A stretch of 64,000 bases of DNA, taken from Escherichia phage anhysbys. The position numbers and the translations under genes were made by a program. The notes beneath the pieces are model-generated. The model was not told where the DNA came from. It did not search any database and saw only the letters and a program-made list of their open reading frames with translations. Location of the stretch: the sequence record NC_052656.1. One strand, given 5' to 3'. This document shows positions 1-34,291 of the stretch, one piece after another. Every line of letters starts with the position of its first letter. Position 1 is the stretch's first letter.

Positions 1-194
1 AGTATGATGGCAAGTTTCCGTGGGAGAAAGATGTTTGTGCCTGTGATTCAGCAGCACATGCCAAAGCAGCGGGTCAGGCAGTAGTTGACATGTATAACAA
101 CACCCCCTTTGATCCAGAAATGGCAGGTGTTACAATGAGCATGTTCACTTACTATTCTTTTGAGGTTTACTATCACGAAGGAGAGTGGAAATGA
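1..194 (+). CDS. hypothetical protein (5'-truncated at window edge)
   Basis: Frame open from position 3 to TGA at 192-194; stop overlaps next start (ATGA). Confidence 0.4.
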   Translation, partial: YDGKFPWEKDVCACDSAAHAKAAGQAVVDMYNNTPFDPEMAGVTMSMFTYYSFEVYYHEGEWK

Positions 195-511
195 GCGAAG
201 AGCTATTAACATTTTACCGCACGTATTTGGCATGGTTGGAAGCTGGTGCTCCTGAAGGTGAACCGTTCACCCGTTGCACAGGTTTGTGCACGAACCTCTA
301 TGATTTTTACGACATAGGAGAAAGCGAACGATACGAACCTGTACTGGATGAAATGCATGAGCAGTTCTACCTCAAAGGTTTGGTTATGGTGTTGCCTTTC
401 AACAGTAATTTTGGAAAGTACACCTTAGAAGCGGAAAAAGGCCGTTGTCATTTGAATGTGGATCGTGTGAACTGGGTAAAAGAACGTGTAGCAGAAGAAA
501 TAATTGGTTGA
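191..511 (+). CDS. hypothetical protein, paralog family 1 (C-terminal D-R-V-x-W-V-K-E-R-V motif)
   Basis: ORF track 185..511; ATG at 191 follows AGGAG; C-terminus aligns with ORFs at 3029 and 4334. Confidence 0.55.
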   Translation: MSEELLTFYRTYLAWLEAGAPEGEPFTRCTGLCTNLYDFYDIGESERYEPVLDEMHEQFYLKGLVMVLPFNSNFGKYTLEAEKGRCHLNVDRVNWVKERVAEEIIG

Positions 512-565
512 CAGAAGGATCTGTCTTTGTCATAATCGTCTCATCGAAACAGAGAGGAGAAAATC

Positions 566-979
566 ATGAAAAAGTTTATTTGCACCCGTTCCACTAACAG
601 TGATATCCTTGTAGGTAAAGTTATCAAAGGAGAACTCTTCCATGCAAACGGTAAGAAATATATTCTGCTGAAAGATTCTTTCAACGGGGAATATCCGCGC
701 TGCACTTTCTTCAATTACAATACTCCATTTGCTTTAGAAGGAGATGCTTGGGACTGGGCTGAACTTCATCCTTGTTGTGAGGAAGAAGAATCTATGTTCT
801 TAGGTTTAAACGTTTACCGTGTAGATTACACCATGTGCGGAGCGGAATATTCTGTTCGCGTAGAAGCCGAATCCAAACTACAAGCACCTTTCAAGGCGGG
901 ATTGACTTTGGGTCATTGTTTGGCAAACATTGAAGATGTTGTGATCCAAAGAGTTGTTTTAGAGAAAGAGGCTATTTGA
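566..979 (+). CDS. hypothetical protein
   Basis: 137-aa ORF, RBS gagaggagaaaatc upstream of ATG. Confidence 0.5.
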   Translation: MKKFICTRSTNSDILVGKVIKGELFHANGKKYILLKDSFNGEYPRCTFFNYNTPFALEGDAWDWAELHPCCEEEESMFLGLNVYRVDYTMCGAEYSVRVEAESKLQAPFKAGLTLGHCLANIEDVVIQRVVLEKEAI

Positions 980-1031
980 CAGAAGACGGTACAATATTTA
1001 AAATATAAAGATTAACCACAAAGGAGAGAAT

Positions 1032-1331
1032 ATGCAAGTTGAAGACCTGATCCACATTCTGAATAAAGCTAAAGAGAAGGGTGCTATCAAAGACTGGAAA
1101 CGTGAAACAAGTGAAGATTTATCTCATTGTTGCCGAGAATTTTACATCGAAGGTATTGCTGACGATCATTATACTATTGAATGGTATATCAACTTAATGA
1201 CTCTTAAGCACGGTTCATTTGAGGTTTGGTTTGATGATATTGATGTAAATGGTTTCCATCCTGGCTATAAAATCGCTATGCAGTTATCTTATCGTAGAGA
1301 AGTTGTAGCACATTTGGGTTTACATAACTAA
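1032..1331 (+). CDS. hypothetical protein
   Basis: 99-aa ORF preceded by aaaggagag RBS. Confidence 0.5.
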   Translation: MQVEDLIHILNKAKEKGAIKDWKRETSEDLSHCCREFYIEGIADDHYTIEWYINLMTLKHGSFEVWFDDIDVNGFHPGYKIAMQLSYRREVVAHLGLHN

Positions 1332-1341
1332 GGAGAAAAGA

Positions 1342-1665
1342 ATGCAAGCAGTTGTTAACGAAGCTATTATGAACTTATCCTTCTTGTTAGCTGGTTTAGG
1401 AGGTGTTCTCATAGGTTTGGCTCTTATCTGGTGTATTCGTCGATTAATCGGGTACCGACAAAAAGGTGTTTCATGTTTTGTATCTTACAATTTTACAACT
1501 GCTTACAGCAATGAGGTTGGATCTGGCAATGCTCAAGCATTTTTACCAACATATCCTCCTACGGTGGAAGATATTCGAAACTTGGAAGTAGAACTTATGG
1601 GACTAGGTGATAACTATACATCTCTAGTTATTCAAAATATTTTTCGACTAAAACAGGGGGCGTGA
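1342..1665 (+). CDS. hypothetical membrane protein
   Basis: 107-aa ORF; hydrophobic N-terminal segment LSFLLAGLGGVLIGLALIWCI. Confidence 0.45.
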   Translation: MQAVVNEAIMNLSFLLAGLGGVLIGLALIWCIRRLIGYRQKGVSCFVSYNFTTAYSNEVGSGNAQAFLPTYPPTVEDIRNLEVELMGLGDNYTSLVIQNIFRLKQGA

Positions 1666-1878
1666 ATGAAGGTATATTACCCTCATCCGTTTGATCCTAA
1701 AAACAAAGCCGTAATTCTTCGTCAGTGGCAACGGGTTTGTCGTACTAAATGTCCAATCAATAGCCCACACAATGTAGACAAGGACTATCTTGGGACATTT
1801 GTTGAATACACTTACATAGACAAAAACAAGCGTAAACAACATGTCGAGGAATACTGCTTAAGAGTAGAATGGCTGTAA
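1666..1878 (+). CDS. hypothetical protein
   Basis: 70-aa ORF, start overlaps previous stop. Confidence 0.4.
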   Translation: MKVYYPHPFDPKNKAVILRQWQRVCRTKCPINSPHNVDKDYLGTFVEYTYIDKNKRKQHVEEYCLRVEWL

Positions 1879-1890
1879 ATAATAAATACC

Positions 1891-1919
1891 TTGACAAGTG
1901 TTTATTCATTTTGTAAAGT
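1891..1919 (+). promoter_or_regulatory. sigma70-like promoter (TTGACA-17-TGnTAAAGT)
   Basis: TTGACA at 1891-1896, 17-nt spacer, TG-extended -10 TAAAGT at 1914-1919, upstream of recombinase gene. Confidence 0.4.
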
Positions 1920-1948
1920 GAGAATACAGCAATGGTTTAGGAGTGGTT

Positions 1949-2620
1949 ATGAAAAAGTTTGTTGTTTACAGTCGTCTTTCTAAACAGAAAAAAGGCGAGG
2001 CACAATATGGTATGGAGAGCCAAGAGAACGATATCCGTTACTTCTTAGACTCTGTGCCTGATGCGGAAGTTATTGGTCAATTTTCTGAATACTATTCGGG
2101 TAAGGGCGATTGGAAGCAACGTAAGGAACTGGTTAAAGCGGTTGAAATGTGTAAAGCTACCGGAGCAACTTTATTGGTAGCTAAAGTTGACCGCTTGGGT
2201 CGTAACAACGCCTCCGTAGCAACTCTTCTAGAAATGATTGATGTTAAGATAGCCATTATGCCAGATGCAGATAAAATGGTTATACAGCTTCTGTCTGTTC
2301 TGGCTGAACAAGAGGTTAGAGGTATTGCTGATCGTATTAAAAAGGGTCTTGCTGTAGCAAAAAGCAAAGGTGTTTTATTAGGCAGTGCTAATCCTAAAAC
2401 TGCCGCTGCACGTAGAAAAGGAAAAATGGAATACAACTCTGTTAAAGCAGACGCTTTTGCAGAGACATTTCGTGAACGTTTGGAGATCCTGAGAGATTTA
2501 AATACACCTTACAAAACTATTGCTGAAAAATTCAATAGTAAGAAAATAGCAACAGCACGTGGTGGTAAATGGGATGCTAAGACTGTTTCTCGTTTGTGTG
2601 CCAGACTGAACATTAAATAG
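1949..2620 (+). CDS. serine recombinase (resolvase/invertase family)
   Basis: N-terminal VVYSRLSKQ (catalytic Ser region), LLVAKVDRLGRN resolvase core motif, C-terminal HTH-like segment; RBS aggag before ATG 1949. Confidence 0.7.
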   Translation: MKKFVVYSRLSKQKKGEAQYGMESQENDIRYFLDSVPDAEVIGQFSEYYSGKGDWKQRKELVKAVEMCKATGATLLVAKVDRLGRNNASVATLLEMIDVKIAIMPDADKMVIQLLSVLAEQEVRGIADRIKKGLAVAKSKGVLLGSANPKTAAARRKGKMEYNSVKADAFAETFRERLEILRDLNTPYKTIAEKFNSKKIATARGGKWDAKTVSRLCARLNIK

Positions 2621-2628
2621 GAGAGGAT

Positions 2629-3051
2629 ATGAAACAAGAAAATGAATCTGTAGATCACTTAATCATGCTGTCAGCCCTTTTTGCAGGATGGGACGTATTT
2701 TTTGAAAATTTGTTCAATTCTGCTACAGATGGTTCCGATTTTATGCGCCAATTTAAACGACGAACTGTTGAGGACTATACCTTCTATTCAGGTCTGATTG
2801 AAAAAGGTTACGAAGATACAAATACAACACTCACCATTAAAGTTTTAGATGTGATGTTTAGTGTTATAGATGCTATCGACGAAAGTCTTCCGATCCTAGA
2901 CAATTGTAATACGAAAGCCTATGTTTACAAAATAGCTCGTGCTTATGTGTCTGCAAACAGTTGTCTTCTTTCCACCCAGATTGCCGTGAACAATCTTGCC
3001 AACTTGTTTGATGAAGGAGAAACTTTTTATGACAATCGATTTGAAGTGTAA
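2629..3051 (+). CDS. hypothetical protein
   Basis: 140-aa ORF with aggagaggat RBS. Confidence 0.45.
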   Translation: MKQENESVDHLIMLSALFAGWDVFFENLFNSATDGSDFMRQFKRRTVEDYTFYSGLIEKGYEDTNTTLTIKVLDVMFSVIDAIDESLPILDNCNTKAYVYKIARAYVSANSCLLSTQIAVNNLANLFDEGETFYDNRFEV

Positions 3052-3394
3052 GAGGATTCTTTTAGATTTCTATAATAATTGGTTAGAACACCTCCGTCTC
3101 TTTCCAAGAGAAAGTGGTTACGCTGATGTTGGCTTATGCCGAGGTCTGCGTATGTATATAAGCGATGAATTTCGGGCAGAGCATTCTTTAGCATATTCTG
3201 TTTATGGTATGCAATTAGCCAGTTTTGAAAACGCTGGCTTAGATACAACTTTCCCATTTAACACAGCAAAATCTTTTGAGCAAGAGTGTAAGGAAAAACG
3301 TTGTATGTTTAATGAAAAACGTGTACAGTGGGTTAAGGATCGAGTTAAACAACTGGAACAAGAGTTGGATTTCTTTTATGACGAGGCAGAATAA
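3029..3394 (+). CDS. hypothetical protein, paralog family 1
   Basis: ATG 3029 after gaaggag; shares FY..WLE / GLC / KRVQWVKDRV motifs with ORFs at 191 and 4334. Confidence 0.5.
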   Translation: MTIDLKCKRILLDFYNNWLEHLRLFPRESGYADVGLCRGLRMYISDEFRAEHSLAYSVYGMQLASFENAGLDTTFPFNTAKSFEQECKEKRCMFNEKRVQWVKDRVKQLEQELDFFYDEAE

Positions 3395-3666
3395 TGGATA
3401 GACAAACCTTAAAAACAATGGCAGATGCTACTAATTCTCCGTACTTTGAAAAAGTAAGTAAATTGGTAGCTCAAGCCGCAGAGGAAGGATATTATAACAT
3501 AAACATCCACAACCCAAGTCTTATACTAGAAATGCCAAGTGATAAAAAGATACAAGAGAGTATCTGTGAAGGTATTGTTAGTTACTGGCGCGAGCGTGGG
3601 TGTGGTGCAAACATGGCTTTAGACAGTGCAAACATTGTAAGATATATAAATATTTCTTGGGGGTGA
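3394..3666 (+). CDS. hypothetical protein
   Basis: 90-aa ORF. Confidence 0.45.
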   Translation: MDRQTLKTMADATNSPYFEKVSKLVAQAAEEGYYNINIHNPSLILEMPSDKKIQESICEGIVSYWRERGCGANMALDSANIVRYINISWG

Positions 3667-3670
3667 TTTT

Positions 3671-4282
3671 ATGATTCAATGCACTCATATCCAAATTACT
3701 TGGAGAGATGAACTTTACCATTTGGGACAATTTACTGTAGGGGAAACATACCCTATCATTAAACATAATCCTAACATCGCAAACTTTGACAGGATGGTTC
3801 TTGTTGAGGACGATCTAGGTCAAACTTATTCTTTAGATCTAAAATATCCGTTTTCTTACGGCTACGATTGGATCGTTACTTTTGAAGACGCGGAGGAAAA
3901 TAAAACAATGAACGAAAAAAATTCTTGGTATTATCGTTGCGAACTGCCGCCAGTAGGTGAAAAGGTTATCTTTGTTCCCGATTTGGAAAGATATTCTTGG
4001 GATAGTTCTTATTCTGTTCCTAAAGAAGGCACCGAAGTTGAAGTTATTGCACATCGCACAACTTCGCATGGTAACGACGTAGCAGTTGTTTTCTGGGATG
4101 ATGAAGGTGCTGCTTGTGCAGGTGGCTTTGTTGCAGGTAATTTTGAACCCCTGCCAGATCCTCTGAAGGAGGCAATTTTAGGCGTAGCTTCTTTTGGACT
4201 CTCTTACACGTCTGCACAAGAGATTGTAGAAGGTATTTTAAACGGTACCGTTCCAAACGAAATTTTCAAACAGATTAAATAA
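3671..4282 (+). CDS. hypothetical protein
   Basis: 203-aa ORF. Confidence 0.5.
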   Translation: MIQCTHIQITWRDELYHLGQFTVGETYPIIKHNPNIANFDRMVLVEDDLGQTYSLDLKYPFSYGYDWIVTFEDAEENKTMNEKNSWYYRCELPPVGEKVIFVPDLERYSWDSSYSVPKEGTEVEVIAHRTTSHGNDVAVVFWDDEGAACAGGFVAGNFEPLPDPLKEAILGVASFGLSYTSAQEIVEGILNGTVPNEIFKQIK

Positions 4283-4287
4283 CAGTT

Positions 4288-4313
4288 GCACCCCGTTCTT
4301 CGGGGTGTTATTG
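4288..4313 (+). terminator. intrinsic terminator-like hairpin
   Basis: GCACCCCG-ttctt-CGGGGTG stem-loop followed by T-rich tract. Confidence 0.45.
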
Positions 4314-4333
4314 TATACGTAAAGGAGGAGATA

Positions 4334-4672
4334 ATGTATTACACTGAAGACTACATACTGTATAACTTTTTTAAAGGCTGGTTGGAATGGGCGGAAAAAG
4401 CTCCTGTTGGAGATTGTGTTTTTCCTTGGGACTCTCGTCAAGGTTTGTGTCGTTGTTTGGAAGACTGGCTTATAACCACAAGCTACAACTCAGAAACTAA
4501 GAAATCTACATCACAAAGGTTAAAAATTTTATTTGAAGAAGATGGTTTAGATCCAATTTATCCTTTCGGTGAGGAAAGTTTCCACAATGGTCTTTTCCTT
4601 GGCACTCAACATTATGATAAAGATCGTGTAGATTGGGTAAAAGAAAAGGTAGCACAGTATGAATGGGGTTAA
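4334..4672 (+). CDS. hypothetical protein, paralog family 1
   Basis: ATG 4334 after aaggagg; C-terminal DKDRVDWVKEKV motif shared with ORFs at 191 and 3029. Confidence 0.5.
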   Translation: MYYTEDYILYNFFKGWLEWAEKAPVGDCVFPWDSRQGLCRCLEDWLITTSYNSETKKSTSQRLKILFEEDGLDPIYPFGEESFHNGLFLGTQHYDKDRVDWVKEKVAQYEWG

Positions 4673-4862
4673 GAATTATCACCGCTGGTTACAAAGCTAT
4701 CTTAAGAAATGTGAACTTGGTGTTCCAGGTTATACTTACGACACAGACGAGATCCTTGATGAAATGGAAGTTTGGTTTAAAGAACCTCGTGAGCTATTGG
4801 CAAATATTCTAATGGCTTGGGATGGTACGGCACAAAGCATCGAAGGGGGTAGAAATGAGTAA
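4659..4862 (+). CDS. hypothetical protein
   Basis: 67-aa ORF. Confidence 0.4.
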   Translation: MNGVKNYHRWLQSYLKKCELGVPGYTYDTDEILDEMEVWFKEPRELLANILMAWDGTAQSIEGGRNE

Positions 4863-5006
4863 GAAATTGTTTAATATTCGTGAGAATCGTGATGGATCGT
4901 TCTCTGTAGTCAATGAATTTAACGTTTCGGTTGGGACTTTTATTACTAAACGTCAAGCAGAACAAGTAAGAGATACTTTAAACAAGTAAATTTTTAAGGG
5001 GGACTT

Positions 5007-5426
5007 ATGTTAGGTAAGATCAAAGCTTTTTTCAAACGTATTGTTGAAGGAAGTCCAACAGAAGGTGCATTAGGAAGATCTCTAACAGGAGAACCACTTG
5101 CCATAATTTCTATCAGTCGGCATGGCGGATATTCCATTCGACAAACACCTTTAGGTATAAAAGGTAGTATGCTTTCTTGGACAATATCTCAAGTTGGTGA
5201 TAACAGACTTGCAGCTATAGCATTGCTTCGTGGGGAGTATGACTATTGTTTATCAGCATCTTGTAAAAAGCACCTCATAGAGCACATTAGAGACAGAGTA
5301 GAAAGAGAAGGCGGATACTTCTTCGAAACTAAGAGAAACGAACAAGGAACTCTTGACTTCACTAAGGTTTACTGGGACAATCATACTCGTCAAACTGTTG
5401 AACAACTTCTGGAGGAAAGATGTTAA
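5007..5426 (+). CDS. hypothetical protein
   Basis: 139-aa ORF with aagggggac RBS. Confidence 0.45.
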   Translation: MLGKIKAFFKRIVEGSPTEGALGRSLTGEPLAIISISRHGGYSIRQTPLGIKGSMLSWTISQVGDNRLAAIALLRGEYDYCLSASCKKHLIEHIRDRVEREGGYFFETKRNEQGTLDFTKVYWDNHTRQTVEQLLEERC

Positions 5427-5629
5427 AAGCTTTTGCTGTATACTCTACTGTAGGATTCTTTTATTGGATTATAGTTATTGTCGGATGTTGGTTAGGTTCT
5501 TGTGTTGTGATGGGAGAATGGTTAACATACAACGTATTTGAATGGGATGTAGTTTGTAGATCATTACTTGTTATATGGACTGCTATTGTTTGTTGGACAA
5601 CTGTTAGTCTAACATTGGATCTATACTGA
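5420..5629 (+). CDS. hypothetical membrane protein
   Basis: 69-aa ORF, two hydrophobic segments. Confidence 0.4.
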   Translation: MLKAFAVYSTVGFFYWIIVIVGCWLGSCVVMGEWLTYNVFEWDVVCRSLLVIWTAIVCWTTVSLTLDLY

Positions 5630-5638
5630 TTAATAGAT

Positions 5639-5667
5639 GGTAGATAGATGATCATAGTTTATCTACC
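5639..5667. repeat. inverted repeat GGTAGATA / TATCTACC (8-bp arms, 13-nt spacer)
   Basis: Perfect 8-bp inverted repeat directly after the stop of the 5420..5629 ORF. Confidence 0.6.
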
Positions 5668-5797
5668 TTCACTTACGTTTCATACCTCACTATCGTGAGT
5701 AACATGAAACATTATTATATAGAAATCTACTACTCGCTATCGCTCGTAAACATATGTTTAGGGTACCATATTTTTTTGAAAAAGTCAATGCTGATTC

Positions 5798-5867
5798 ACC
5801 TATCAATTATCTGTTTAAGATAAGTCTTACCTATCAATCTAACTCTTAACTAGTATTGCACCTATAG
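5798..5867. repeat. three phased direct repeats ACCTAT(C/A) at about 31-bp spacing
   Basis: ACCTATCA at 5798 and 5829, ACCTATAG at 5860, inside a 360-bp non-coding AT-rich region. Confidence 0.5.
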
Positions 5868-5922
5868 TAAGATTATTCCTATGGTTATTAACCCTCTTCT
5901 TCTATAGAATGTAATTAGATCC

Positions 5923-5952
5923 TTGACAAACTCACAAAACTTGTGTTACATT
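5923..5952 (+). promoter_or_regulatory. sigma70-like promoter
   Basis: TTGACA at 5923-5928, 17/18-nt spacer, TTACAT/TACATT -10, about 40 nt before the ORF at 5990. Confidence 0.45.
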
Positions 5953-5989
5953 GTGTCTCACAGGTGAATAATACCGAACAGGAGGAAGA

Positions 5990-6205
5990 ATGAGTTCCAA
6001 TTTTCTATACAAAGCAAAAGATTCACGAGATGGAGAGAAACATTGGTGGTTGATCACAGGAGATGGTGTTATCATCCTACCGTGGGACGGAGAGACAAAA
6101 GTTCAAATACTGGAGAAAGTAAAAGGTGTTAGTTTTAATGTTAGTCATGACATAACAACTTTCAAAGCTTTTGCAATGAATCCCAGTCTTGTTGCTGAAT
6201 GGTAA
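5990..6205 (+). CDS. hypothetical protein
   Basis: 71-aa ORF with aggagg RBS. Confidence 0.5.
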   Translation: MSSNFLYKAKDSRDGEKHWWLITGDGVIILPWDGETKVQILEKVKGVSFNVSHDITTFKAFAMNPSLVAEW

Positions 6206-6437
6206 TCCAGGAGAAAATATGACTAAAATGTATGCAGCCGTTGATAAGCTGGATGGGTCTGATTCTGTTTTTATTTTGAATAAAATGGGTGTCTTAGTTT
6301 ATGCCCGAACTTCTCAAAACATAGAGCACCAAGTGGAAGCAGCACAAATTTTAGAGCAAATAACCCCTCCATACCTATACTCAAATGTTGAGCGTTTTAA
6401 CGATGCACTTGGTTTGACGTTAATAGCGGAATGGTAA
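6189..6437 (+). CDS. hypothetical protein
   Basis: 82-aa ORF. Confidence 0.45.
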   Translation: MLLNGNPGENMTKMYAAVDKLDGSDSVFILNKMGVLVYARTSQNIEHQVEAAQILEQITPPYLYSNVERFNDALGLTLIAEW

Positions 6438-6637
6438 TAATGGCGAAAATGTTGAAAATTGATAATGTCGTAACAATCACTACGTCTATACCTTGTCCTC
6501 CTATGCCTTGCCCCTATTGTGGTGGTGCAGGATATGTTATGGCGGATGTAGGTCAAATTTACGAGTGTAACCCGTGCAAAACCACAGGTTATATCCAAAT
6601 AGAATCAGAGGAGAAACACTATGAGCCAAAACGCTAA
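6431..6637 (+). CDS. hypothetical zinc-ribbon protein
   Basis: CPYCGG ... CNPCKTTG cysteine pairs. Confidence 0.4.
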   Translation: MVIMAKMLKIDNVVTITTSIPCPPMPCPYCGGAGYVMADVGQIYECNPCKTTGYIQIESEEKHYEPKR

Positions 6638-7070
6638 AGAAAAAGAAGTAATCACGGTAATCCGTCAGATGGAAGGTGCCGAAAACAATGCTTTTGTTAC
6701 TAAGATTCTTCTTAATATCTTTGAAGATGTTATTTTAAACAACCCTGGTCATAAAGATTATCAGTATGATGTTATGATGGGTGCTTTACTTGAGATTAAC
6801 AAAAACACTTTTGCTGAATATGAGCAACACATGCTTTTACCAGAGGAAGATCAGGATTATTTGTTATCTGGTGCTTTAAGTGCACAAGAAAATTTCTACC
6901 ACGTTCTTAATATGGCTTATGCAGATGAACTTGCTGTTTCCCTTGAAGAGCGGATTCAAATGGTTCGTGACGTAATGAATGAACAAATCCAAGAAGTTGA
7001 AGACTTGGTAGCAGAACCTTTAGCAGAAATTCGTGCAGCTATTGAAAAACAAAAAGGAACTCAATCATGA
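6621..7070 (+). CDS. hypothetical protein
   Basis: 149-aa ORF. Confidence 0.5.
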   Translation: MSQNAKEKEVITVIRQMEGAENNAFVTKILLNIFEDVILNNPGHKDYQYDVMMGALLEINKNTFAEYEQHMLLPEEDQDYLLSGALSAQENFYHVLNMAYADELAVSLEERIQMVRDVMNEQIQEVEDLVAEPLAEIRAAIEKQKGTQS

Positions 7071-7234
7071 TGCAAGTAGGTGATGTGGTTTGTCTTAAAG
7101 GTGCAAACAAACAAATGACAGTAATAGAAAGTTATGGTGAATCTTGTAAAGTAACTTGGTTCGATGAAAACGGGGAATTGCAACACGCCATATTCGATCA
7201 AAAAGCTTTGAGGAAGGTTGAAGAAAAAGAATGA
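7067..7234 (+). CDS. hypothetical small protein (55 aa)
   Basis: ATG 7067 to TGA 7232-7234, below the ORF-track size cutoff; fills the gap between flanking genes. Confidence 0.35.
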   Translation: MMQVGDVVCLKGANKQMTVIESYGESCKVTWFDENGELQHAIFDQKALRKVEEKE

Positions 7235-7494
7235 GCCATCCGTCAATATTTTTCTGTTTTGTAGATCTTGAAAACGAGTCTTTAATCGTTGATAGTGAGG
7301 GTTACTTCACTTATTGGGAATCCGAGCACGAAACTATAAGTGTAGTGAAAGAAATTATGCAAACCAATCCAAGCCTACCAGCGCATAAGTACGGTATTGC
7401 AAAAGTGTTTGTTACTAAAACAGAGTACACAAAAGAGCGAAGCACTTTGTACCATAATATTGAAGTGATTCACTATTTCAAAGATGTTATTTAG
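7231..7494 (+). CDS. hypothetical protein
   Basis: 87-aa ORF. Confidence 0.45.
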   Translation: MSHPSIFFCFVDLENESLIVDSEGYFTYWESEHETISVVKEIMQTNPSLPAHKYGIAKVFVTKTEYTKERSTLYHNIEVIHYFKDVI

Positions 7495-7502
7495 GAGGTT
7501 AT

Positions 7503-8111
7503 ATGGAAGAGAAGATTTGGGATGGTAAAGATCCTTTAGAAGTTGGACACGTAGCGCGTGTCAAAAAATCTACTACAGGTCCTGGTTTTTCTGGTTTGTA
7601 TCATATACCAGAAGAAGGTCAGCACGTTACAATTTTGGCTCGTGACAAACAAAACGGAGCAACGCCTGTGTGGATTGTTCGTTGGTATGACAAAGATCTT
7701 AACATTTGCTTGTCACCTATTATGGCTCATTTGCTGGAAGCCCCTTGCTCTGAAGAAGCTCTAATTTTTGTTTCGGCTTTTCAGAAAGCCACAGGTTTAA
7801 CATTAGATGCAAAAGATGTGCAAAAAGCATTTGACATTATTCAGGAAGACAACGATACTACATCTAACGACGAACTGGTTGAAGTTACAATCTTATCTTC
7901 AGCAGATATCCGAGAGATTGATAATTGTGATTTTCCAATCACATTTAAAATGTCGCAGAAAGACATGCAGTCATCTGGAAGTTGTTTTGGTATACCTCGT
8001 TGGTTTTTTGATTCTATCAAAAATTCTACTACAGAGGGATCAGACTATGATCAAGATGACGTGCTTTGGTTCTTAAAAAACCGAGAGATTGTTCTCTCAC
8101 CACTTAAATAA
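7503..8111 (+). CDS. hypothetical protein
   Basis: 202-aa ORF with aggagg RBS. Confidence 0.5.
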   Translation: MEEKIWDGKDPLEVGHVARVKKSTTGPGFSGLYHIPEEGQHVTILARDKQNGATPVWIVRWYDKDLNICLSPIMAHLLEAPCSEEALIFVSAFQKATGLTLDAKDVQKAFDIIQEDNDTTSNDELVEVTILSSADIREIDNCDFPITFKMSQKDMQSSGSCFGIPRWFFDSIKNSTTEGSDYDQDDVLWFLKNREIVLSPLK

Positions 8112-17261: not shown

Positions 17262-17852
17262 TCAAATTATTAACGAAACCGCATGACTAAATCTTGGTTC
17301 AGATATAACCTCTGCTACAGTCACATATGTATCGTGCAGCCAAAAAGATTCTACTCTACAAACACAAATACCGTTGATAATGAAATCTACACAGGCTTTA
17401 TTATTTTCGCACACTTGTTGACTATAAACAACCCCTAAAGAGTCATAAAGTGATCTCACTGTTGCTACCATTTCATCTGTTTCGTCTTCCTGTGAAACAA
17501 AGAAAACGAATACAGACAAGTTATTAGCGAAAGTATTGCTATTCTCTACTTCAACCGACTTACAAGGTAAAAAGGAGTAATATTTACCGTTAGGTATCAA
17601 TTTCGCCTCAACCTGGTTAAGTATGCTTTGAGATGGTTTTGTTACATAAAAAAGATTTTCTGTTGGGTTTTCAACATTGCTCCTTACTATGCAACGAGTG
17701 GGGTTCGAAGGATCAAAAACATGATCGAAATCGACACACACAGGTAAGTTAACAACTTTAAACTTTTTGCTAAGAATGCTTACTGCTGTAAAAATCAAAC
17801 CAGCATTTATTTTGCCAGTGAAAGTTGAACGCATAACTACTCCTCGGATCAT
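17262..17852 (-). CDS. hypothetical protein
   Basis: 196-aa ORF. Confidence 0.5.
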   Translation of the reverse strand: MIRGVVMRSTFTGKINAGLIFTAVSILSKKFKVVNLPVCVDFDHVFDPSNPTRCIVRSNVENPTENLFYVTKPSQSILNQVEAKLIPNGKYYSFLPCKSVEVENSNTFANNLSVFVFFVSQEDETDEMVATVRSLYDSLGVVYSQQVCENNKACVDFIINGICVCRVESFWLHDTYVTVAEVISEPRFSHAVSLII

Positions 17853-18043
17853 TCTACCAAAGAGAATTCCGCCTCTTCTAGGTAGATTACAGACCTTGTT
17901 GCATGATATTTAACGCTCCAGAAATTACCTTCGCGCCGTAAAAGTATCTCATTCACATCAAGATTGCTTAGAAAAACCATATAACTTAAAGCTTGTTGAC
18001 GCGTTGAGAATTGTTTCTCTAAAAGTTCTTCTCCGCTCTGCAT
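17849..18043 (-). CDS. hypothetical protein
   Basis: 64-aa ORF. Confidence 0.4.
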   Translation of the reverse strand: MQSGEELLEKQFSTRQQALSYMVFLSNLDVNEILLRREGNFWSVKYHATRSVIYLEEAEFSLVE

Positions 18044-18089
18044 AATCCCTCCTTAAAAATACTCCCTCCGAAAAGGGAGTATAAGTATA

Positions 18090-18293
18090 TCACGTAGTTG
18101 TTATGTTGTCTTCTTGGATACTAGAATCCACTTCTGCAAACATATCTTCTGCACTGTAATTATTTCCAGTCCAGCGTGATAAAAGGATAGCACCAATCTC
18201 TTTTGCATGAGATTCGGACTCCGCATAAACGTTAGTCCCAGTGTCACCTTTTTTCTTTTCATGTGCATAAATGCAGTAATAATTGTAAGCCAT
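18090..18293 (-). CDS. hypothetical protein
   Basis: 67-aa ORF. Confidence 0.4.
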   Translation of the reverse strand: MAYNYYCIYAHEKKKGDTGTNVYAESESHAKEIGAILLSRWTGNNYSAEDMFAEVDSSIQEDNITTT

Positions 18294-22462: not shown

Positions 22463-23304
22463 TACCTCTCCTTATTAAGTAATACTGCTAAAGACTGTTC
22501 AATACCTTTATTTAAATCTGATTTTGTAAGATAGTGACTGGTTACTAATTGTGACTTCACCGGACGTGCTGCTGGAGCATTATAGGTTGAAGCTGATACC
22601 GCCGATATCTTAACAGGTTCTGGCATCTGTGTCAAGATCTTTTCCGCAAACTCCGCCCAAGAAATAAAATGGCTTCCTGCAAAATGGTAAGTCTTAACAG
22701 ACCTTGACCAACCTGTTTTTAATACTTCAAAAATAGCTTCTGCTAAATCTGGAGCATATGTTGGACAAGAGAACTGATCAGCAACAACAATAAAATCACG
22801 TTGTCCATCATTATAGCGAGACAACATGGTTTTTAGAAAGTTATTTCCAAATTCGCTATATACCGAGGCTGTTCGAATAATATATGCATTTGGGTTAACT
22901 CCTCGCACCATTTTTTCACCGAGTTCTTTCGTATACCCATAATTGTTTATTGGGTTAGGTGTAGTATCTTCAAAAATAGGATGAGAATAATTAAAAATAT
23001 AATCTGTAGAAATATGCACAAAATCAATTTTAAGTTTGCTGCACACTGCCGCAATATTTGCAGGTCCATACGCATTAACAGCCAAAGCAGTAGCAAAATC
23101 ATGTTCTGCTTTATCTACAGCCGTATAAGCAGCGCAGTTAATAACACCGTCTACATAATCTTCAACAATAGCGTTTCGCACAGCTTCAAAATTTGTAATA
23201 TCTACACGTTCTTTAGGATAAATTAAAGATACATTCGAAGGAACCACTTTACGTAAAGCTTGTCCCAGTTGTCCATTACCACCTAATACCAGATATGTTA
23301 GCAT
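22462..23304 (-). CDS. rmlD: dTDP-4-dehydrorhamnose reductase
   Basis: LVLGGNGQLG NAD(P)-binding N-terminus, AAYTAVDKAE, STDYIF, YGYTK, FSCPTYAPDLA characteristic of RmlD. Confidence 0.8.
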   Translation of the reverse strand: MLTYLVLGGNGQLGQALRKVVPSNVSLIYPKERVDITNFEAVRNAIVEDYVDGVINCAAYTAVDKAEHDFATALAVNAYGPANIAAVCSKLKIDFVHISTDYIFNYSHPIFEDTTPNPINNYGYTKELGEKMVRGVNPNAYIIRTASVYSEFGNNFLKTMLSRYNDGQRDFIVVADQFSCPTYAPDLAEAIFEVLKTGWSRSVKTYHFAGSHFISWAEFAEKILTQMPEPVKISAVSASTYNAPAARPVKSQLVTSHYLTKSDLNKGIEQSLAVLLNKER

Positions 23305-34042: not shown

Positions 34043-34252
34043 TTATTCATCGTCATCCTCTGTTGAGAATGTTTTAGTATACGGACATTGACGACTTTTC
34101 GGGATTGCTATAACTTCATCTTGGTTAGCGTTAGAATAGTAGCAATATTTTGTGTTGCCATTAACTTCAGAATCAGACAAGATTAAAGTAATTTGACCTG
34201 CTGCTACTGTGAAACTAAAAGCTAAAAGAACGACTGTCAGAATCTTTTTCAT
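34043..34252 (-). CDS. small secreted/lipoprotein-like protein
   Basis: N-terminal signal-peptide-like MKKILTVVLLAFSFTVAAG; own promoter and AGGAGG RBS. Confidence 0.55.
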   Translation of the reverse strand: MKKILTVVLLAFSFTVAAGQITLILSDSEVNGNTKYCYYSNANQDEVIAIPKSRQCPYTKTFSTEDDDE

Positions 34253-34260
34253 AACGCCTC

Positions 34261-34291
34261 CTAAAAAGCCTACCTCATTAAGTAGGTAGGC
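34261..34291 (-). terminator. intrinsic terminator overlapping the downstream promoter
   Basis: Minus-strand GCCUACCU-ACUUAAUG-AGGUAGGC followed by UUUUUAG. Confidence 0.55.

Follow-up and report, generated by a model that had tools for sequence, protein, structure and literature searches.

The described systems closest to the gene considered here are the Tn3/γδ resolvases, the Sin/β-type resolvases of plasmids, the Gin/Cin/Hin/Pin invertases, and the large serine integrases (φC31, Bxb1, TP901-1). The Tn3/γδ resolvases (PDB 1GDT, 5CY1) have a C-terminal HTH of about 45 amino acids with a GR(K/P)R arm, and the genes of the Tn3 family lie next to a transposase, with a three-subsite res upstream. 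The invertases have a Hin-type HTH of about 50 amino acids and turn over an invertible segment between inverted crossover sites, adjacent to tail-fibre genes, giving rise to isomers. The large serine integrases run to 450-600 amino acids and carry a zinc-ribbon/coiled-coil domain. Outside the serine enzymes, Cre-loxP of phage P1 makes do with one site per genome, at which it cyclises terminally redundant DNA and resolves dimers.

The window analysed in this work, by which is meant the whole stretch of 64,000 nucleotides from Escherichia phage anhysbys (NC_052656.1), carries a gene for a small serine recombinase, of which the parts are these:

1949 to 2620, plus strand: serine recombinase gene, 223 amino acids, equivalent to phAPEC8_0049 (ORF and sequence, PF00239, PHROG_125)
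1939 to 1943, plus strand: ribosome-binding site AGGAG, 5 nt ahead of the ATG (reading of the sequence)
1979 to 1981, plus strand: codon of Ser11, the predicted nucleophile, which aligns with Ser10 of γδ resolvase (alignments, with Y7, R9, and S11 invariant)
1949 to 2386, plus strand: catalytic domain and αE helix, amino acids 1-146 (Pfam match to residues 5-142; model up to helix 109-139; 95% identity to the phiWec181-type protein)
2387 to 2617, plus strand: C-terminal linker and helical DNA-binding domain, amino acids 147-223, RD-like; the part of the protein that varies (weak PF07508 match, helices of the model, 36% identity to the phiWec181-type protein)

The ORF runs on the plus strand from an ATG at 1949 to a TAG at 2618-2620. 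Among Pfam profiles, Resolvase (PF00239) aligns with residues 5-142 at E 5e-18, scoring 66 bits where the cutoff is 23.3, and the PHROG profiles that respond are PHROG_125, named 'DNA invertase' (E 2.6e-32), and PHROG_95, named 'integrase' (E 7.6e-22). None of the curated NCBIfam equivalog cutoffs was reached, the best score being 32.5 bits to YneB (NF049883), where the cutoff is 175, with the Mpi invertase at 22.6 bits against 272. Solved structures gave their best sequence matches in Tn3 and γδ resolvase (E 3e-6 to 6e-6, residues 45-146), followed by Sin and by invertases of the Gin/Hin type; the DNA-invertase chains in PDB reached phmmer E values of 0.006-0.01. When the protein was aligned with γδ resolvase, Hin, and as many as 49 homologues, residues Y7, R9, S11, R58, D81, R82, and R85 proved invariant over 50 sequences, and E120 and E122 are kept in at least 90%; in γδ resolvase the catalytic set consists of R8, S10, R45, D67, R68, R71, and E118/E124. 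An AlphaFold2 model built from 50 sequences (pLDDT 88.5) has the α/β fold of resolvases, with an αE helix spanning residues 109-139 and, towards the C-terminus, five short helices (149-156, 164-172, 175-183, 188-197, and 210-219). Foldseek, given this model, returned the catalytic domains of Sin, γδ resolvase, TP901-1, and Bxb1 as the top matches in PDB. By profile cutoff, by the Y-x-R-x-S motif with its set of Arg, Asp, and Glu residues, and by modelled fold, then, the protein is a member of the serine recombinase superfamily, as the preliminary description of the locus had it. The catalytic serine on which that description hung is in place as Ser11, and with all catalytic residues present, the enzyme is predicted to be catalytically competent.

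The same description saw an HTH following the catalytic domain. A helical DNA-binding domain is indeed found there, but it is not the three-helix HTH of Hin or γδ resolvase. Its 77 amino acids make it longer, and it resembles the N-terminal part of the RD of large serine recombinases. PF07508 ('Recombinase') gives a weak match, below its cutoff, to residues 187-216 (E 0.003, profile positions 19-48 of 102), and matches to PF07508 are precomputed for some of the homologues. The likeness to the large serine integrases lies in this C-terminal part, which recalls the first RD helices, and in Foldseek the chains of Bxb1 and LI integrases aligned with the phage model over about 250 columns. The phage protein, however, has 223 amino acids and no zinc-ribbon/coiled-coil domain, and no lysogens were found. 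With the Tn3/γδ resolvases it shares its set of catalytic motifs and a long αE helix, besides the sequence matches given above, but its identity to γδ resolvase is about 24%, it lacks some 10 residues in the αD/β4 region, and its gene is accompanied by neither a transposase nor a three-subsite res. The Gin/Cin/Hin/Pin invertases belong to the same superfamily, are of similar size, and lend their name to the PHROG family and to several GenBank annotations, but the identity (to Hin) is about 25%, the C-terminal domain is RD-like, and the gene has no invertible segment, inverted crossover sites, tail-fibre adjacency, or isomers to go with it.

The C-terminal domain is also where phapecoctaviruses part company with one another. 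Compared with the protein of the phiWec181-type phages of this genus, identity is 95% over residues 1-146 and 36% over residues 147-223, and the nucleotide homology stops at window position 2382, at the domain boundary. A breakpoint so placed means that two DNA-binding specificities have probably been set upon one catalytic core within a single genus. No site visibly co-varying with the swapped domain was seen. A natural swap of this kind, in which the catalytic core is held constant and the DNA-binding domain differs, could interest those who engineer recombinases.

The first 8000 nucleotides of the window are 97-98.4% identical to phAPEC8-like phages (Phapecoctavirus, Stephanstirmvirinae), and the whole window is collinear with positions 140903-76905 of phage Mt1B1_P17. 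At least 61 phage records contain the recombinase itself with 100% amino-acid identity. Against Mt1B1_P17 its gene shows 12 substitutions, all at third codon positions, with 12 synonymous and 0 non-synonymous, and the density of substitution, 1.8%, equals or exceeds that of the flanking ORFs. A density that high with no amino acid changed argues for purifying selection on the protein, not for a recent origin or for constraint at the level of DNA. Nor is the gene a truncated remnant in related phages, a circumstance that would have told against the preliminary description: it is intact in the relatives, and the sole exception is the Schickermooser record, where six small deletions fall within the first 230 nt and the remainder differs only synonymously. 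Neighbouring ORFs in that record show similar indels, and sequence error is a more probable cause than decay of the gene.

The gene has been annotated since 2012, but the literature search turned up no functional study, whether of the gene itself or of the homologue in ICP1. As gene 0049 of phAPEC8 it is entered as a 'putative site-specific recombinase'. Elsewhere in GenBank the product is called 'DNA invertase' or 'resolvase', left as 'hypothetical', or mislabelled 'methionine ABC transporter ATP-binding protein'.

All the ORFs surrounding the gene are small and without assigned function. The gap upstream of it measures 70 bp and contains a promoter of its own:

1891 to 1919, plus strand: σ70-type promoter, TTGACA, 17 nt, TAAAGT (10/12 in a consensus scan; hexamers kept in phiWec181-type phages)

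The phiWec181-type phages retain both the -35 and the -10 hexamers around a wholly different spacer, which is the footprint that a real promoter leaves. The upstream intergenic region as a whole is conserved no better than synonymous sites. A TTGAC(A/T) promoter also lies in the gap of 50-80 bp before the gene in Justusliebigvirus, the Klebsiella phages, Shewanella phages 1/4 and 1/40, and the ICP1 homologues; one relative at 78% has no room for a promoter there. To judge from its sequence, this conserved σ70-type promoter would let host RNA polymerase transcribe the gene as soon as the DNA enters, and early transcription is predicted. The placement of the gene in an early region holds up.

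Beyond the phapecoctaviruses, relatives of the protein are found in these phages, listed with their amino-acid identity to the protein encoded in the window:

Justusliebigvirus, Serratia phage KKP_3264, and Klebsiella Stephanstirmvirinae: 52-58%
two marine Vibrio phages: about 38%
Shewanella phages 1/4 and 1/40: about 35%
ICP1, in a minority of its isolates: about 30%

Within Stephanstirmvirinae the gene is universal and very stable. Among about 85 ICP1-type records, it lies in a replaced block in 8 and is absent from about 75, and in the ICP1 lineage it is dispensable.

Its position differs between sister genera. In Justusliebigvirus and Klebsiella phage phi1_175008, the gene is part of an array with the order PhoH, HslV-like, methyltransferase, two small ORFs, recombinase, small ORF, HisRS-like, phosphatase, DprA-like, and in Shewanella phage 1/40 it occupies a similar HslV-ligase-DprA neighbourhood. 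Phapecoctavirus has the array intact, with both small ORFs that flank the recombinase position conserved, but the position itself is empty:

18044 to 18090, minus strand: empty ancestral slot, a terminator-like hairpin ACTCCCT-TTTCGG-AGGGAGT followed by a T-run (synteny of the flanks; alignment of filled and empty sites)

The small ORF that follows the slot is homologous in the filled and the empty genomes. The recombinase of Phapecoctavirus lies 15.5 kb from the slot, on the opposite strand, after a homologue of JohannJBalmer gene 0157. The proteins of Phapecoctavirus and Justusliebigvirus are 57% identical, within the range of their genomes, where the median is about 65%. The simplest reading of these sequences would be vertical inheritance with one relocation of a unit made up of promoter and gene. 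Comparison of the filled and empty sites revealed no junction repeats or target-site signature at either locus. Two genes were considered as conserved partners and rejected: the small ORF downstream of the gene in Justusliebigvirus, which in Phapecoctavirus was left behind at the old locus, and a 367-aa neighbour, which is common to the two Vibrio phages only.

A site on which the enzyme might act was sought in the window and in a composite genome of about 150 kb, made up of the window and the rest of Mt1B1_P17. Within the window, a search for repeats gave only terminators, tRNA-related repeats, and pairs at chance level, and no convincing inverted repeats flank the gene, in agreement with the preliminary description. 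One pair does bracket it (1476-1513 and 3612-3649), but its arms are 74% complementary, they lie inside two coding ORFs, and their quality is that of a chance pair, and the segment between them is never inverted in 58 full-length matches. The search for paired inverted repeats that had been suggested gave, in the window, no pair beyond chance. On both strands of the composite genome, no 28-mer from 1600-2950 has a partner (at least 22/28) beyond four matches that are at chance level or look like ribosome-binding sites. A match between 1936-1960 and 34241-34265 on the other strand was set aside as a shared ribosome-binding site followed by Met-Lys-Lys codons. Strong palindromes throughout the genome are terminators or Fur-box-like dyads, and apart from the Fur-like boxes, the composite genome contains no clusters of repeated 8-mers. 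The arrays of Fur-box-like dyads, which lie outside the window, are unlikely to be recombinase sites, because they are conserved between genera while the DNA-binding domain of the recombinase is not.

Upstream of the gene there is no res-type array of three subsites. The 70 bp gap offers one weak dyad:

1881 to 1906, no strand: weak dyad AATAAATAC-N8-GTGTTTATT over the -35 hexamer, a low-confidence candidate for an operator or site (8/9 arm positions pair)

The dyad is unique in the window, but it is weak, and it is not conserved in phiWec181 (right arm) or in relatives at 74-81%. Dyads of equal quality are common in the AT-rich DNA of this region, and this one is probably due to chance. A 30-bp dyad at 1899-1928, with the geometry of the motif that distant relatives carry (described below), was also discarded: its 10/14 pairing is at background, and polymorphism in Mt1B1 and Schickermooser weakens it.

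The wider family is more generous with dyads. An exhaustive HMMER search produced 2,542 cluster representatives at E ≤ 1e-10, and most of the best 150 of these are about 220 amino acids in length and match over their full length, so that the recombinase belongs to a large uncharacterised subfamily. Full-length relatives (34-40% identity, 95-99% coverage) reside on non-mobilizable plasmids of 5.8-10 kb in Klebsiella, Citrobacter, Synechococcus, and roseobacters, where the gene is preceded by a long stretch of non-coding DNA. On a Klebsiella plasmid, a 34-bp dyad (16-nt arms around a 2-nt centre) stands 34 bp before the recombinase gene. By analogy, multimer resolution is the job expected of a serine recombinase on plasmids so small, and such may be the putative role of these relatives. 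Of other, more distant relatives, one borders on host genes at the margin of a prophage in Pseudomonas aeruginosa, and another belongs to an island that carries a primase. When the 160 bp upstream of the gene was examined in 61 non-redundant viral loci, dyads of 14+14 nt with at least 11/14 pairing appeared in 25%, while control windows reached this score in 5% (Mann-Whitney p 1e-6). Several viral loci have in common a 30-bp motif, AAAAnnnnCTAACG-NN-CGTTAGnnnnTTTT, of which each has a single copy, 9-24 nt ahead of the start codon. Loci of the Justusliebigvirus type have in common an 11-nt block, TAGTGCATACT, which covers the -10 region of the promoter and is found once in the 145 kb JohannJBalmer genome. 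A single dyad adjacent to the gene, common in the wider family, fits resolvases or systems of the attP type and does not fit invertases.

What, then, might the enzyme do? The preliminary description left the role open among concatemer resolution, inversion elsewhere, and regulation. The plasmid relatives and the upstream dyads lend indirect support to resolution or cyclisation, while some 60 collinear assemblies (see below) disfavour inversion, and a purely regulatory function is unlikely because the catalytic residues are strictly conserved. Tentatively, and with low confidence, we suggest that the protein is a resolvase or cyclisation enzyme whose substrate is the chromosome of the phage itself, each genome having one dyad as its site. 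According to this proposal, a dimer of the recombinase would bind the dyad. Two copies of the site would exist only in incoming DNA that is terminally redundant or in head-to-tail multimers produced by replicating circles, and these copies would be brought into synapsis. The four strands would be cut through phosphoserine links to Ser11, one half of the tetramer would rotate, and the ends would be rejoined, to give circles of unit length. A single-site system predicts that neither a second copy of the site, nor pairs of repeats, nor inversion isomers should be found, as is the case. A dimer on a dyad beside its own promoter, acting on direct copies, would make the likeness to Tn3/γδ resolvase closer. 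Another parallel would be the 'recombinase family protein' genes, themselves uncharacterised, that plasmids of 6-10 kb carry, one of them with its upstream dyad, except that the phage has a virulent genome of 150 kb packaged from concatemers and no equivalent dyad upstream. Cre-loxP would be an analogue in function only, as Cre is a tyrosine recombinase from a temperate phage-plasmid, whereas here the enzyme is a serine recombinase and no lox-like site was found. A homologue is present in some isolates of ICP1, a phage whose genome is reported to become circular once inside the cell and then to pass from theta to rolling-circle replication (PMC7145576).

Several observations sit poorly with a single site in the phage genome. 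No site was found in this phage, where the only upstream dyad, at 1881-1906, is weak and unconserved in the phiWec181-type phages. The gene is missing from most ICP1-type records, and the upstream intergenic region enjoys no extra conservation. A change of locus between sister genera, combined with a swapped domain, is awkward for a housekeeping site, and phages that package from concatemers have no obvious need for multimer resolution. Perhaps the target is not in the phage at all but in the host chromosome, a prophage, a plasmid, a satellite, or a co-infecting phage, the enzyme serving early takeover or conflict between elements and the swapped domains serving to retarget a constant core. 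We consider this unlikely, though several observations fit it: the position of the gene among small early ORFs with its own host-type promoter, the divergence of the C-terminal domain between two lineages of Phapecoctavirus from a breakpoint at the domain boundary, the status of the gene in ICP1 as an accessory within a replaced block, and the failure to find a self site in the window or the composite genome. We know of no precedent for a phage recombinase directed at DNA other than its own. Moreover, the flanks have no similarity above chance to 5,426 E. coli genomes, PADLOC gave no match, and the universality and stability of the gene in Stephanstirmvirinae look more like housekeeping than an arms race. 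Less probable again is the wider conjecture that virulent phages of the Stephanstirmvirinae type produce the recombinase within minutes of infection and that it rearranges or breaks the DNA of hosts or rival mobile elements, not of the phage itself, by way of exchangeable domains, or the variant in which the unit is itself a mobile cassette. It is about equally improbable that promoter and gene form a selfish, 'moron'-like cassette, or the relic of an integrase or resolvase, with no part in the lytic cycle. The unit does sit cleanly in one slot in Justusliebigvirus and the Klebsiella phages (and similarly in Shewanella phage 1/40), Phapecoctavirus has nothing of it left in that slot and carries the unit on the other strand, 15.5 kb away, and patchiness in ICP1, distant relatives in a prophage margin of Pseudomonas and in an island with a primase, and the disrupted copy in the Schickermooser record might all be expected of such an element. 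But a gene without a role would hardly be under strong purifying selection, with 0/12 substitutions non-synonymous, or keep its catalytic residues invariant across genera. The 57% identity between genera, set against the genome median of about 65%, speaks for long vertical inheritance and not for recent hopping, neither locus bears junction repeats or a target-site signature, and the Schickermooser indels, which extend to neighbouring ORFs, may be errors of sequence.

Two roles familiar from other phages are both highly improbable. An invertase of the Gin/Cin/Hin type might flip some distant segment, for example as a switch of host range or of a promoter, and the name of PHROG_125, the label 'DNA invertase' in several GenBank records, and the several tail fibre and spike genes carried by these phages invite the idea. 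The fibre genes, however, are about 63 kb from the recombinase and outside the window, judging from the nearly identical Mt1B1_P17, so the earlier statement that the gene is not adjacent to tail-fibre genes was correct. About 60 independent phapecoctavirus assemblies, compared over some 105 kb (window positions 1-8000, 8001-33000, and 33001-58000, a 21.5 kb tail-fibre/baseplate block, and a 25 kb replication block), are collinear and include no inversion isomers; their differences are insertions, deletions, and replacements of cassettes, with 0 inversions. These are consensus assemblies, which may hide minority isomers, and in the early block, which is highly mosaic (Mt1B1 1-25 kb and 141-151 kb), the comparison was too fragmented to count. 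Add to this the lack of inverted-repeat pairs beyond chance in the window, the distant relationship to Hin (phmmer E 0.006-0.01 for the invertases), and a C-terminal domain of another type. The second role, that of a small serine integrase by which the phage could now and then integrate, or persist as a carrier, in one host or another, has just as little to recommend it. A small serine integrase is reportedly used by the filamentous phage φRSM, the distant relatives include those in the Pseudomonas aeruginosa prophage margin and the island with a primase, and a single dyad directly upstream of the gene, as in the relatives, would also fit an attP. Yet neither the gene nor its flanks occur in any complete E. 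coli genome (0/5,426), the best matches being chance ones of 39 nt (E 6), and the region 1500-3100, inspected for attB-like similarity to those genomes, showed none. A profile scan with a narrower alignment found no close relative encoded in 185,579 species-representative GTDB genomes. No repressor or excisionase is annotated, and the phage group is described as virulent (PMC10269720). The enzyme is thus neither a tail-fibre invertase nor an integrase of lysogeny.

To return to the proposed action at a single site in the phage chromosome and its chief competitor, the identity of the site would show one of two things: that the genome is circularised or reduced to monomers by site-specific recombination, or that the enzyme is aimed at other DNA. 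Either would be of value, as there is no established role for a site-specific recombinase that is strictly conserved and predicted to be early in a virulent phage. What is new here is the change of locus relative to Justusliebigvirus, the domain swap, the relatives on plasmids, and the single upstream dyads of distant relatives. The relocation and the swap are unusual as evolutionary features but do not amount to a demonstrated new mechanism.

There is also a practical side. Phapecoctaviruses and justusliebigviruses are popular candidates for therapy, and phages with a recombinase gene usually fall under suspicion of lysogeny. Thousands of host genomes bear no mark of integration by these phages, and the gene, real and active-looking as it is, should not alone disqualify them. 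Phages ESCO5 and ESCO37 are stated in one paper to encode no recombinase (PMC10269720), but tblastn finds the gene present and intact in both.

The recombinase gene occupies different places in the two sister genera of the Stephanstirmvirinae, Phapecoctavirus and Justusliebigvirus. The comparison turns on a slot that has a conserved small ORF on either side, in the following stretches.

Window, 17849-18293, minus strand: stretch with the slot
L001 (a Justusliebigvirus-type locus), 3737-4873: the same slot
L006 (a further compared locus), 22604-23047: the same slot

In Justusliebigvirus and Klebsiella relatives, the slot is filled by a promoter and the recombinase gene. Since in the window phage it contains only a terminator-like hairpin, and the recombinase gene is found 15.5 kb away on the opposite strand, the sister genera differ by a single clean relocation of the gene.

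The gene is also mosaic within Phapecoctavirus. Compared with the phiWec181-type gene (loci L011 and L013), it shows 82% nucleotide identity up to window position 2382 and is unalignable beyond (2382-2620), placing a breakpoint at the boundary between the catalytic and DNA-binding domains. The ORFs downstream of the gene likewise differ between the window and the phiWec181-type loci.

Directly upstream (window 1666-1878) lies an ORF encoding a DUF7202 protein (PF23832, E = 4e-37), which adjoins the recombinase gene across Phapecoctavirus; in the Justusliebigvirus phage JohannJBalmer, the DUF7202 ORF is gene 0157, with no recombinase gene adjoining it. The early region of the window also carries three paralogous ORFs (185-511, 2996-3394, and 4286-4672) that share the C-terminal motif DRV(N/D)WVKE(R/K)V. 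PHROG_2510 matches the latter two, which were the two covered by the scan, and the syntenic early region of JohannJBalmer has at least three further copies. Vibrio phages 277E43-1 and VnaP both encode, just downstream of the recombinase gene, a conserved 367-aa protein:

L096 (Vibrio phage 277E43-1), 6470-7573: 367-aa protein gene
L097 (Vibrio phage VnaP), 5740-6843: 367-aa protein gene

The two proteins are 34% identical, and one is annotated as a "histidine kinase-like ATPase". The protein has no match in Pfam, and the Stephanstirmvirinae, ICP1, and Shewanella loci all lack a homologue of it.

Dyads and conserved blocks lie upstream of several related recombinase genes. In Shewanella phages 1/40 and 1/4 (L021 and L022), a 34-bp dyad, AAACCCAGTGACTTAATATAAGGTTACTGGGTTT, covers the promoter roughly 60-17 nt ahead of the recombinase start, and one sister phage carries the exact reverse complement of the other's. 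The difference is a small hairpin-loop inversion that alters the -10 region. The Justusliebigvirus-type genes (L001, L012, and L014-L018) are preceded by an 11-nt block, TAGTGCATACT, that overlies the -10 region. It is identical in five diverged loci with completely different flanking spacers, occurs once in the JohannJBalmer genome, and in Klebsiella phages forms the center of a 21-25 bp palindrome. The block is a candidate for the operator or site of this type of recombinase. A 30-bp dyad, AAAAnnnnCTAACG-NN-CGTTAGnnnnTTTT, is common to distant relatives (33-38% identity); it stands once per locus, 9-24 nt upstream of the start codon, and looks like a serine-recombinase crossover site.

L035, 552-563: AAAAnnnnCTAACG-NN-CGTTAGnnnnTTTT dyad
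L079 and L090, 5960-5971: the same dyad
L051, L041, and L023: the same dyad

Outside the window, two large noncoding regions flanking a block of small early genes (about 12 kb) are filled with arrays of Fur-box-like 19-bp dyads, AATGATAATNATTCTCATT; the window itself has none.

L004 (Mt1B1_P17), 57, 236, 978 and 13303, 13332, 13361: AATGATAATNATTCTCATT dyads
JohannJBalmer (MZ501084.1), 79033-79126 and 90105-91216: AATGATAATNATTCTCATT dyads

The arrays are kept in both genera. The dyads match the E. coli Fur consensus at up to 16 of 19 positions, a resemblance that may point to control of early transcription by iron or Fur.

In the Schickermooser record (NC_048196.1; L010, 2700-4300), the recombinase gene and neighboring ORFs contain many deletions of 1-7 nt, and because of these only the C-terminal 128 codons of the gene are annotated; the likely cause is poor sequence quality in this stretch, not true decay into a pseudogene. 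The label "methionine ABC transporter ATP-binding protein", given to the gene at the position of window 1949-2620 in several GenBank records (MT496970, NC_052662, OR062524, MW175890, LR597654, OR352956, and others), is wrong. Finally, ESCO5 and ESCO37, said to have no recombinase gene (PMC10269720), both in fact have an intact one.
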